NCBI GenBank assembly: GCA_024137785.1
Contig: JAHRHZ010000024.1
Coordinates: forward strand, 33,216,644-33,280,643
Length of the DNA stretch: 64,000 bases
Direction: 5' to 3'
Origin: Ginglymostoma cirratum
Lineage: Eukaryota
Of the stretch, positions 5,125 to 37,852 are shown in pieces (position 1 is the first letter of the stretch; each line of letters opens with the position of its first letter). The translations under genes were made by a program, and so were the position numbers. The notes beneath the pieces were generated by a model. That model saw nothing but the letters and a program-made list of their open reading frames with translations, did not search any database and was not told the DNA's origin.

Positions 5125-5919
5125 GTTCATCAGAGTAATCACCTAGGCCCAACCATCTTCAGCTGCTTTGTCAATTAACTTCCCTTCATCATAAGGTCAG
5201 AAGTGGTGATGTTTGCTGTTGATTGTATAACGTTCAGCAACATTCACAATACCTCATATACTGAAGCAGTTGGTGTTCAAATGCAACAATATCCTGGATA
5301 ATATCAGGGGCACATGAGTGACAATTAACACCATATGAGTGTGAGGCAATGACAAAATCCAATGCAAGAATTATCTAACAAGAGGGATCTAAACACTACC
5401 CTTGGCATTCAAAGGAATTACCATCACTGAAGGCCCCACTTACCAACATTCTGGTGCTACCATTGACCAGAAACTGAACTAGACCAGCTAGATAAATACA
5501 GTGGCTAAAAGAAAGAGTAGGAACCATATAGCAAGTAACTCACCTCCTGACTATCCCACCACAATTGACAAGATGAGATGGATGGCAGAAATTCACCAAG
5601 GCTCCTGAAACTGCACCTTTCAAACTAGTCACCATATCCATCTAGAAGGACAAAGATATCAACCACATGGGAACACAATGACCTCCAAGATCTCCTCCAA
5701 ATCATTGCTACCTTGACATGGAAATATATCACTGGGTCAAAATCTTCGAACCCCCTTCGTAACAGCATTGCCGGTGTACCAACATCAAACAGACTGCAGT
5801 GGTTCAAGAAGGCAGCTTTCTGCTACCTTCTCAATTGTGAATAGGACTGGGGAATAAATGTTGGCCCAGGCAGCAACGCGCACATGAGTTACTTCTAAAA
5901 AAACTACACAAGTACTGTT

Positions 5920-6153
5920 AAAAACTGGAAGAACTGTAGATGCTGTAAATCAGGAACAAAAACAAAGTTGCTGGAAAAGCTCAACAGGTCTGGCAGCATC
6001 TATGAAGGAAAAAACAGAGTTAACATTTCGGGTCCAGTGACCCTTCCACAGAACAGTTCTGAGGAAGGGTCACCGGACCCGAAACGTTAACTCTGTTTTT
6101 GCCTTCACAGATGCTGCCAGACCTGCTGAGCTTTTTCAGCAACTTTGTTTTTG
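5920..6153. mobile_element. Palindromic Penelope-derived element with 15-bp TSD
   Basis: Arms ~5957-6053 and ~6056-6153 are near-perfect reverse complements. TSD tacacaagtactgtt (5905-5919) / tatacaagtactgtt (6154-6168). Confidence 0.9.
6055..6092 (+). ncRNA. Minimal type-I hammerhead ribozyme motif
   Basis: AGTT-CTGAGGA-a-GGGTC-accg-GACCC-GAAAC-GTT-AACT: stem I AGTT/AACT, core CUGANGA/GAAA, 5-bp stem II, palindromic ACGT stem III. Confidence 0.8.
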
Positions 6154-7139
6154 TATACAAGTACTGTTCTTCGTCTCTGAGAACGATTGTGCGTCCAAGA
6201 GCAATTACTTGCTTATTCATGTGCAGTTCACTTACGATCAGAAACAGTGCATGATATCTTATACTGGAGTGTCTATTCTAATGAATTACTCATTCCTGTA
6301 TGTAGTTAGAGGGTAAGATTCACTGAACAAATATCAAAAATGTCGATACATGTCCCAGCTCTGCAAACCCGAAGTGGGAAGTACAAATTTTGGCAAAATT
6401 TGGATTCTTGTTCTCAGGTCGTGTTTCTGCAAGTCATGACTCGTGATGCTGGAAAGTATGCTGCCAGATACTGAGGTAGGCTGGGAGCATAACCATCAGT
6501 GTACCAGCACTTTGTCAGAGACTTTCCAATCACAATGAAACAAAGTAACCACCTTCCAGTCTACACCCTCCCCATGCCATCAAATCGGAATGTAGCCGTA
6601 GAAAATACATGTAGGCTATTTGCCCTTTCATGTCTGCTCTGCAAATCAATACAATCACAGCTGACCAGGCAACTCAGTACCCTGTATGTGCCTTCTCCTT
6701 CTATCCTTTGACCTCTTTAGCCTCAAGTAACATATTTGACTCTTTCTTGAAAAGTCTAACTCCTTCTTCAAAATGCTCTCTAATCATGCCCATGACTTCT
6801 CATGCTGGCCATTCCAATCAATGCACGACAACACACCTTTACAATGTCAAAGTCAACTAGGTGCCTTCCCCACGTACCAGTTTTCTCTCACACCTACCAT
6901 CCCTACTCATTCATTATCTATTACAGGTAGATCTCAAGAAATAACTTTTATCTTGGCATCGATATTAAGTGCCAAATTGAAGAATTCATTATTTCAAAGA
7001 CAGAACACTCTCGCTGATAGAAATTCATTCATTACACTTCGATGAATATCTCACAAAATCATGCGTTAGAATTCAACTGAGGCCAAGAGAAGGCAAAAAC
7101 TTTGTATTTAGTGATTACAAAATGCACTTCCACCAATAT

Positions 7140-10834: not shown

Positions 10835-10935
10835 AACAAACACGAGATCGCAGGAGAAACTCAGAAGGTCTGACAGCATCTGTGTGGAGAGAAAGATAAT
10901 GACATTGAGTCCAATTTGACTCTTCTTTGTAACAT
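10835..10935 (-). mobile_element. Degenerate Penelope-like terminal fragment
   Basis: ggagaaactcagaaggtctgacagcatctgtgtggagagaaa..gagtccaatttgactcttctt resembles the left arm of 5920-6153. Confidence 0.6.
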
Positions 10936-25870: not shown

Positions 25871-26888
25871 TCTTTCATTCTGCCTTTGTAAAGTGTTTGA
25901 ATATGGTTGATCTACAGTGACAATCAGACAGGCAGAGTCTGTTCCAGGTTGTATATTAACAAATAATGAAAATGTAAAAGATACATAGATGTGTACAGCA
26001 CAAAAGGAGACCATTGTCAACATTTGCTCAAGCAATCCAAACTAACCCTCTGCTGTTGTCACCCCCTTAGATACATTGTCTGCCTCTGCTCCAAGTGTTT
26101 ATCCAATAGGCGATAGAACAGACTTAATTCAACACCTTATTACATTATTGGTAAACAAAATGCACATCAAGAAGTGCCACTAAAGAATACAATATGATCA
26201 AACAACCTGCAAATGCATTGATTACTGTGTCAATGTGCTCATTCTGAGTCAGCTTATCCATAAGTCATTAATTTGAAAATTGAACAGTCTGCAGATTTCT
26301 GTCTTAAAATATCGATCTAATTTTCTACATGTTAATAAGTTATTACTTCAACTGCCATCTTAACCTAGGGTCTAAGTTTTCCAAATATTGACAGTTTTTA
26401 TGCAAAATGTGACTTCACAAAGTTTTTCTCAGGGTTTACAGAAAAATGTTAGGATGCAGTTATGTGTGTGGTCAGACGTAAGAGATTACTAAATTAGTTC
26501 AGCCATTCATTTCAAAATCTTCAAATTAGTCACTTATTTTAGATAGAAGAGTGTTGCTCTGCGTAATCTGCCAGCCAACAAAATCATATTCTTACAAATC
26601 AGTCCTTTCAAATACCTGTGTTCATTTGATTTTAATAGGTCATTAATTACAAAGAAAAGCACTCAGTCCCATTTTTCTTCTGCTAAAGAGAGACCAACTG
26701 TAGCATCCAAGCCTGGAGGCCCAGCGAAAAATTTCAAACTAGCTTTAAAAACCTCATCCAATTTTTATTTCCCAATTCTACCTATTTCATAGATAGTAGG
26801 AACTGCAGATGCTGCAGAATCTGAGATAACAAGGTGTAGAACTGGATGAACACAGCAGGCCAAGCAGCATCAGAGGAGCAGGAAGGCT

Positions 26889-26916
26889 GACGTTTCGGGC
26901 CTAGACCCTTCTTCAG
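26889..26916 (-). ncRNA. Minimal hammerhead core in the PLE terminus
   Basis: Reverse complement CTGAAGA-a-GGGTC-ta-GGCCC-GAAAC-GTC; stem I weak. Confidence 0.65.
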
Positions 26917-28067
26917 AAATGGGGGAGGGGAAGGGGGTTCTGAAATAAATAGAGAGAGGGGGGGAGGCGGATAGAAGATGGATAGAGGAGAAGATAGGTG
27001 GAGAGGAGACAGACAGGTCAAAGAGGCGGGGATGGAGCCAGTAAAGGTGAGTGTGGGAGGAGGTGTAGGGGCAGGTGTAGCACTTCCTGCGGTTGCAGGG
27101 AAAAGTGCCGGGTGAAGTGGGGCTGGAGGGAAGTATAGAGCGAACAAGGGAGTCATGGAGAGAGTGGTACCTCTGGAAAGCAGACAAGGGTGGGGAGGGA
27201 AAAATGTCCTTGGTGGTGGGGTCAGATTGCAGATGGCAGAAGTGTCGGAGGATGATGCGTTGGATCCGGAGGTTGGTGGGGTGGTACGTGAGGACGAGGG
27301 GGATTCTGTTTTGGTTCTTATTGCGGGGACAGGGTGTGAGGGATGAGTTGCAGGAAATGCGGGAGACACGGTCGAGGGCGTTCTCGACCACTGAGTGGGG
27401 GGAAGTTGCGGTCCTTGAAAAACGAGGACATCTGAGATGTATGGGAGTGGAATGCCTCATCCTGGGAGCAAATGAGGCAGAGGTGAAGGAATTGGGAATA
27501 GGGGGTGGAATTTTTGCAGGAAGGATGGTGGGAGGAGGTGTATTCCAGGTAGCTGTGGGAGTCGGTGGGCTTGAAATGGACATCTGTCTCTAGGTGATTG
27601 CCGGAGATGGAGACAGAGAGGTCCAGGAAGGAGAGAGAGGTACTAGAGATGGTCCAGGTGAACTTAAGGTTGGGGTGGAAGGTGTTGGTGAAGTGGATGA
27701 ACTGTTTGAGCTCCTCCCGGGAGCACAAGGCTTCAAAAACCCCCTTCCCCCTACCGCATCCCAAAACCAGCCCAGCTTGTCCCCGCCTCCCTAACCTGTC
27801 CTTCCTCTCGCCTATCCCCTCCTCCCACCTCAAGCCCCACCCCCATCTCCTATCTACTAACCTCACCCCACCCCCTTGACCTGTCTGTCCTCTCTGAATT
27901 GACCTATCTCCTCCACAACTCCCCCACCTACACTCACCTTTACTGGCTCCATCCCCGCCTCTTTGACCTGTCTGTCTCCTCTTCACCTATCTTCTCTTCT
28001 ATCCATCTTCTATCCGCCTCCCCCTCTCTCCCTATTTATTTCAGAACCCTCTTCCCCTCCCCCATTT

Positions 28068-28095
28068 CTGATGAAGGGTCTAGGCCCGAAACGTC
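28068..28095 (+). ncRNA. Minimal hammerhead core in the inverted PLE terminus
   Basis: CTGATGA-a-GGGTC-ta-GGCCC-GAAAC-GTC; stem I weak. Confidence 0.65.
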
Positions 28096-28197
28096 AGCTT
28101 TCCTGCTCCTCTGATGCTGCTTGGCCTGCTGTGTTCATCCAGCTCTGCACCTTGTTATCTCTACTTTTTCATGTTTGTTCTTTTCTTAATTTCTATA

Positions 28198-37695: not shown

Positions 37696-37852
37696 GTGTG
37701 GAGGTGCCAGTGTTGGACTGTGGTGGACAAAGTCAGAAATCACACAGCACCAGGTTACAGTCCAACAGGTTTATTTGAAAACACAAGCTTTCAGAGCCTC
37801 AGTTCTTCCTCAGGTGCTAGGCCTAACACCTGAAGAAGGACTGAAACTCTGA
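37696..37852 (-). mobile_element. Short PLE-derived element (fourth family) with inverted partial end and perfect 12-bp TSD
   Basis: TSD tagtttatcctg at 37684-37695 and 37853-37864; cagagcctcagttcttcctcaggtg is inverted relative to cacctgaagaaggactgaaactctga. Confidence 0.85.
37782..37816 (-). ncRNA. Minimal hammerhead motif, partly degenerate
   Basis: Reverse complement CAC-CTGAGGA-agaactgaggctct-GAAA-GCTT-GTG: stem I CAC/GTG, palindromic AAGCTT stem III, mismatched stem II. Confidence 0.6.

Follow-up and report, generated by a model that had tools for sequence, protein, structure and literature searches.

Fold-back inserts in Ginglymostoma cirratum as probable twin-primed run-off copies from the RNA 5' end of a putative Neptune-type Penelope-like element

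Within the window, meaning here the whole 64,000-nt stretch of Ginglymostoma cirratum DNA that was analysed, a 234-nt insert lies between two copies of a target-site duplication (TSD) at 5905-5919 and 6154-6168. A left arm on the minus strand (5956-6054) and a right arm on the plus strand (6056-6154, its last base common to the TSD) are inverted relative to each other, 99 nt each and complementary at 92 of 99 positions (93%), with one nucleotide between them. An earlier sequence-only reading of this DNA had described fold-back arms of about 97 bp, which are real, and a 15-bp TSD, which is present but not perfect (14 of 15 identical, one mismatch). The fold-back is not symmetric, however: a 36-bp extension at 5920-5955, on the left arm only, had been overlooked. 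If window position 6055, the fold-back centre, is numbered +1 of the element, both arms cover +2 to +100 (the left one in antisense), and the minus-strand extension covers ~+101 to +137 and, in full-length copies, runs on into the 5' UTR and ORF. This one-sided tail is a signature of Penelope-like elements (PLEs). The whole insert is predicted to form a single hairpin (-158 kcal/mol), and it is not a chance structure, because the best 40 of 4210 candidate places in the genome align with it over most or all of its length, with an identity of at least 87%. Five of the seven differences between the arms are C to T and none is A to G relative to the family's common state, and an ADAR scar was accordingly rejected for the window copy. 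The insertion adjoins the A-rich end of a decayed repeat (5400-5904), which we take to resemble the 3' end of a CR1-type LINE, and another copy (L116) sits in a similar repeat. Older fragments of related pLTR ends, 76-81% similar, occur at 352-383 and 10835-10884.

The plus strand carries an intact minimal type-I hammerhead motif (6055-6092), found in the sequence and by a descriptor scan, which is complete and starts at the fold-back centre just as had been claimed. Stem I pairs 6055-6058 with 6089-6092, the core CTGAGGA occupies 6059-6065, and there follow an unpaired A, a 5-bp stem II and GAAAC-GTT, with the predicted cut between 6088 and 6089 and AACGTT as the stem III palindrome. Core, stems and palindrome confirm a PLE-type motif, and the short stem I, the unpaired base before stem II and the palindromic 15.2-16.2 recall the minimal PLE hammerheads of PMC4209133. 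The mirror motif on the minus strand (6018-6055) is more decayed than the two substitutions originally counted: three arm differences fall inside the hammerhead, at 6062 (core A6), 6074 (loop II) and 6085 (the C of stem III), and the first A of stem I is missing. Searching Rfam at E<=10, as the sequence-only reading had proposed, yielded 10 weak matches, none of them to a hammerhead model: all were to miRNA and other models, driven by the hairpin and below gathering scores, and the miRNA matches were rejected as hairpin artefacts. Taken as a "ribozyme-bearing hairpin", the insert would be inert: stem II has a pairing probability of 0 in the predicted fold of the 234-nt transcript, and the hammerhead is predicted to be buried in the hairpin. 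Dimeric folding within one insert RNA is impossible since the two motifs lie on opposite strands; a hand-drawn active dimer reached -16 kcal/mol versus -24 kcal/mol for the best two-strand fold, a score that says nothing about cleavage. Cleavage by minimal PLE hammerheads is described as poor and as requiring either dimer formation or protein in the relevant passages of PMC4209133, PMC6765202 and PMC11167929. The first of these also mentions hammerhead pairs 100-700 bp apart on opposite strands, whereas the pair in the window stands back to back and is predicted to be locked in a hairpin.

Comparison with about five other hammerhead families in the fetched DNA, qualitative in nature, showed that pairing in stems I and II is kept through different sequences while one stem III palindrome is swapped for another. 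Because the stems covary between families, the motif has been under selection in the parent elements; in the insert it would be a passenger, carried along with the first 38 nt of the element RNA, which it occupies. At 37821 on the minus strand a further family is represented by a decayed hammerhead-like motif whose stem III palindrome is AAGCTT and which has an intact relative at another locus (L162). Overlapping the 3' side of the intact hammerhead, window 6086-6112 (element +32 to +58) looks like a textbook splice acceptor, with a branch-like motif, a pyrimidine run and CAG right before an ATG. In full-length copies this acceptor-like site opens a short upstream ORF of ~30 codons, and a second such site lies just 5' of the ATG of the main ORF. 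Hairpins of this kind within host introns could serve as cryptic acceptors.

The insert belongs to a large family, of which it represents the shortest product. An exact 40-mer of the arm (+54 to +93) has 9,358 matches in the 4.36 Gb genome, and the perfect 19-bp centre occurs in 602 exact copies, head-to-head. In long copies the sequence continues upstream as a decayed ORF that contains RT motifs, a CX4CX2C linker (seen between RT and EN in L116, L068 and L168) and a GIY-YIG-like domain. Pfam RVT_1 matched three of five stretches (E=5e-5 to 0.05, below curated cut-offs and at the right position) and GIY-YIG one of five (E=0.005, below the curated cut-off), and a PDB search with the RT stretch found no relative. 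In different copies the +1 to +137 piece precedes the 5' UTR and ORF start or follows the ORF stop, a partial-tandem pLTR layout that, judged by sequence organization, is that of an endonuclease-positive (EN+) PLE. In PMC3846280 and PMC8557442, as far as the sections consulted go, the EN+ PLE unit comprises a pLTR, an adjacent inverted 5'-truncated copy, an optional 30-40-bp tail and a TSD. The family likewise has a single ORF with RT and C-terminal GIY-YIG (by motifs in decayed long copies), inverted 5'-truncated copies with the optional 30-40-bp tail, and a hammerhead motif in the pLTR. Its linker motif places the parent element as putatively Neptune-type, and the order of RT, CX2-5CxxC linker and C-terminal GIY-YIG, together with a pLTR hammerhead, matches the Neptune clade as outlined in PMC8557442. 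The long ORF begins some 40 nt past the tail. The sequence-only reading was therefore right to derive the insert from a PLE despite its MITE-like looks: the one-sided tail, the 12-16-bp TSDs and the variable junctions and lengths led us to reject a MITE. Two long insertions (L163:171-3407 and L164:116-3396) have one arm ending at +99 to +101 and the other at +137, and one long copy of the Neptune-type family (L104, ~745-800 and 240-345) harbours an inserted fold-back of a second PLE family.

Arm ends were surveyed in the first places of the 40-mer in genome order (~93 of 100 listed; 30 loci and 60 stretches), with no selection on breakpoint; L001-L030, which had been ranked by likeness to the window copy, were excluded from breakpoint and marker counts. 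The sample held 95 anchored arms in 89 loci, from which five beside N or masked sequence were dropped (n = 90). Anchored arms reach +93 by construction and have their outer ends at +137 or close to +100; for unanchored partner arms, ends at +67 to +96 occur as well. Solo copies have the same two outer ends without any fold-back, and the genome-order sample as a whole forms a continuum in which solos, uneven pairs and long copies intergrade. Exactly one tail is present in 25 of 29 head-to-head pairs in genome order (two tails in one, none in three; the set includes one pair from an older family) and in 38 of 41 perfect-centre fold-backs, a set in which masking of an arm may conceal a tail. Of the 29 pairs, 18 are flanked by a 12-16-bp duplication with a score of at least 10. 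Both 3' ends in the insert face outward, as would be expected if every target end had primed one cDNA.

Inner ends are not random, as plotting them relative to the hammerhead core made plain: 47 of the 90 arms start within 5 nt of +1 (-5 to +5), none starts at +33 to +37, and 15 start beyond -30. This wall at +1 is common to solo (33/60) and inverted (14/30) arms, many ends keep +1, +2 or even -1 to -3, and the other 43 arms start away from it. Of the 20 copies in which the ORF start is present, 13 extend to the pLTR, and the sense arms of these near full-length copies start at -466, -135, -88, -35, -1, +4, +4, +19, +25, +27, +28, +73 and +77; three thus begin at -1 to +4, and three more have an inverted partner that begins at -1 to +1. 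Because solo, near full-length and inverted copies stop at the same base, the breakpoint would be a property of the template end, not of the inversion. Junctions vary between copies. A targeted search for junctions between an arm that extends fully to +2 and a partner that breaks off near the cut returned 793 matches; most of the first 100 listed join at microhomologies near +22 to +31.

The motifs around +1 suggest what this template end may be. TATAAA stands at -29 in 16 of 23 long copies and as a one-base variant in five more, all being copies of one master and not independent, and the long copies have an initiator-type motif with its A at +1. The two motifs stand at the consensus TATA-to-initiator spacing. 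We infer that +1 is the transcription start, and hence the RNA 5' end. In 6 of 41 perfect centres a G replaces the +1 A, which may, as a hint only, be a copied cap. Four contig sets of presumed RNA have loose ends and strand switches at +1/+2, possibly genomic stumps in host RNA; such contigs cannot show RNA starts and were not counted as evidence for +1. The second PLE family, with 31,179 exact genomic matches of one 39-mer, has TATTTAT at -31 and an initiator-like CCATTT without AG (window 28033 and 28064). After 4 of 30 arms had been dropped for masking, 10 of the remaining 26 start at -5 to +5 and none between -5 and -50, and a single one starts exactly at the predicted cut site. A long head-to-head insertion of this second family occupies window 26793-28161, with hammerheads at 26924 (minus strand) and 28060 (plus strand); both of its arms reach far upstream of the hammerheads, and it has a tail on the left and none on the right. 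As to known PLE promoters, a rotifer pLTR is noted in PMC3846280 to contain TATA and initiator-like motifs, and Penelope of D. virilis has, according to PMC2377424, a TATA-less internal promoter.

We consider it probable that the insert consists of two short end-pieces of a Neptune-type PLE, set head to head within a TSD and derived from twin-primed cDNAs that ran off the 5' end of the RNA. The element RNA would carry two RT start sites, 100 and 137 nt from its 5' end and again in the 3' pLTR, at which both nicked target strands would prime cDNA in one insertion event; the outer end of the tail (5920-5955) would mark the first priming site and that of the right arm (6056-6154) the second. Priming at the 5' copies of these sites would give 100- and 137-nt run-off cDNAs ending at the RNA 5' end, nicks staggered by ~12-16 bp would give the TSD, and end joining of the two cDNAs the variable centre. 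Because the TATA box is absent, the product is predicted to be a promoterless, immobile dead end, made anew each time. This proposal draws on the observed family and its RT/GIY-YIG parent, the outer ends at +100/+137, the inner wall at +1, the varied junctions and the TATA/initiator motifs. By analogy it is also consistent with in vitro work on a related PLE, Poseidon rather than Neptune: the anole Poseidon experiments reported in PMC11167929 describe cutting and extension of both target strands, with two internal start sites bounding the tail.

The relation between the two arms bears on whether they were copied separately. At two subfamily markers the arms agree in 26/26 and 31/31 readable pairs of the genome-order and unselected sets. 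A hypervariable T-rich tract is identical in 11 of 31 arm pairs versus 2.8 expected, in a set that includes ranked loci, and in 2 of 13 versus 0.5 expected in the perfect-centre set; in the window copy itself the arms differ there. Both arms are thus likely to stem from one RNA, judging from these sequence comparisons, although marker agreement also follows from subfamilies active at different times or from later homogenisation of the arms. Among pairs whose arms differ in length by more than 5 nt, truncation goes further on the tail arm in 16 cases and on the other arm in 4 (p=0.012). At L174, L180 and L188 a nearly full-length arm breaks off at +25 to +77, and its inverted partner is complete to +1. 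Exact head-to-tail junctions, from the tail to the +1 region, exist only twice in the genome (L221 and L222).

Arm agreement and near-perfect centres, including the 602 exact junctions, would also be accounted for if an antisense transcript or cDNA folded back at its end and was extended, with the endonuclease resolving the ends, and palindromic junctions are read as self-priming on an antisense template in the account of PMC3846280. We nevertheless regard such self-priming as unlikely. A simple snap-back is disfavoured because a cDNA folding on itself cannot supply bases that were never copied, and a tail-primed cDNA that snapped back should leave the tail arm complete and the second one shorter, the opposite of the 16 versus 4 observed. 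Solo copies, moreover, have the same outer ends and inner wall with no fold-back, and in vitro, in the experiments covered in PMC11167929, sense RNA was copied from both target strands. A more specific form of twin-primed run-off, which we judge evenly balanced between being right and wrong, is a PLE counterpart of strong-stop cDNA: RT would start 100 and 137 nt inside the 5' end of the RNA, a dimeric enzyme would prime both target strands on a single RNA, the leading cDNA would reach the cap, and the trailing one would displace the leading one and stall. L177 and L186 contradict this trailing-arm rule, as do 4 of 20 asymmetric fold-backs.

The sequence-only reading had instead linked the position of the ribozyme to the insertion mechanism, and in both PLE families the wall is indeed the first base of stem I of a motif whose covarying stems point to selection. 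It is nonetheless improbable that the hammerhead fixes the breakpoint, whether through cleavage or through a fold or bound protein that stops RT. The fold-back centre lies 34 nt upstream of the cut, no arm among the 90 starts at +33 to +37, and ~5 of the first 100 listed junctions (hand count) fall at +35, no more than at neighbouring positions; ribozyme cleavage does not set breakpoints in the Neptune-type family. Since RT would come upon the structure from the 3' side, a stall would be expected at about +26 to +38, not past +1. For anole Poseidon, PMC11167929 reports in the sections covered that ribozyme mutants insert normally and that no RNA-seq reads ended at the cut.

Quite improbable, too, is a wall that reflects RNA processing at +2, at a 3' splice site or otherwise, instead of a transcription start. 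Long copies do carry a branch-like motif, a pyrimidine run and CAG ahead of +3, and an intron of D. virilis Penelope ends at helix I according to the part of PMC4209133 concerned, but many ends retain +1, +2 or even -1 to -3, no constant upstream exon was seen in the sampled copies, and the second PLE family has an identical wall without an AG, a pattern easier to reconcile with a transcription start than with a splice acceptor. It is barely tenable that the 234-bp hairpin moves independently and is copied whole, whether MITE-like or as a non-autonomous PLE. The overall length common to many copies and the 602 exact 19-bp centres might suggest it, but same-length copies had been ranked by likeness and the genome-order sample is a continuum, the ends are unequal (one-sided tail), the TATA box is lacking and the centre base is polarised either way (+1 A on the tail arm in 14 and on the other arm in 18 of the perfect-centre set).

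Twin priming is familiar from L1, in which the second target strand primes on the RNA and yields a head-to-head inversion inside the TSD; there the overlap between the two segments is minimal and the second site falls at random, whereas in the Neptune-type family both sites are fixed and both arms copy one stretch. The architecture of inverted pLTR, one tail and TSD is already in print (PMC8557442 and PMC3846280, as far as covered). The Adineta Pen2a insertion unit (PMC3846280; overview in PMC8557442) shares the head-to-head pLTRs, one-sided tail and TSD, and from what is described there the window insert differs in its arms of 100-137 nt without an ORF, in TSDs of 12-16 bp versus 8-10 and in inner ends that accumulate at one base. 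Anole Poseidon, as characterized in the passages of PMC11167929 covered, is alike in its two internal RT start sites bounding the tail, in cutting and extending both target strands and in not needing the ribozyme for insertion. Its ORF starts inside the hammerhead, in contrast to the ORF some 40 nt past the tail here, and those passages offered no explanation of inverted pairs or of a 5' wall. Non-LTR retrozymes (bioRxiv 10.64898/2026.07.22.740005, in the parts seen) are likewise non-coding, PLE-derived and equipped with a type-I hammerhead, but they are head-to-tail tandems; we rejected this class because it needs such units and the genome has 2 exact head-to-tail versus 602 head-to-head junctions. 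In the literature searched, with key reviews, Repbase and Dfam lying outside it, we found no proposal of twin priming or of run-off at the transcription start for PLEs.

In itself the insert is an unremarkable stump from a retroelement class already known, and its value lies in the record of end statistics. Such hairpins are liable to be mis-annotated as MITEs or miRNA precursors. For the formation of PLE inverted repeats and the completion of insertion, the end statistics give a direct prediction for the existing in vitro system: a capped RNA should yield products of 100 and 137 nt on both strands, irrespective of the ribozyme. If the strong-stop-like reading is true, it would replace the antisense self-priming model of PLE inverted repeats, and thousands of hairpins would locate the promoter and both start sites and show in which order synthesis proceeded.
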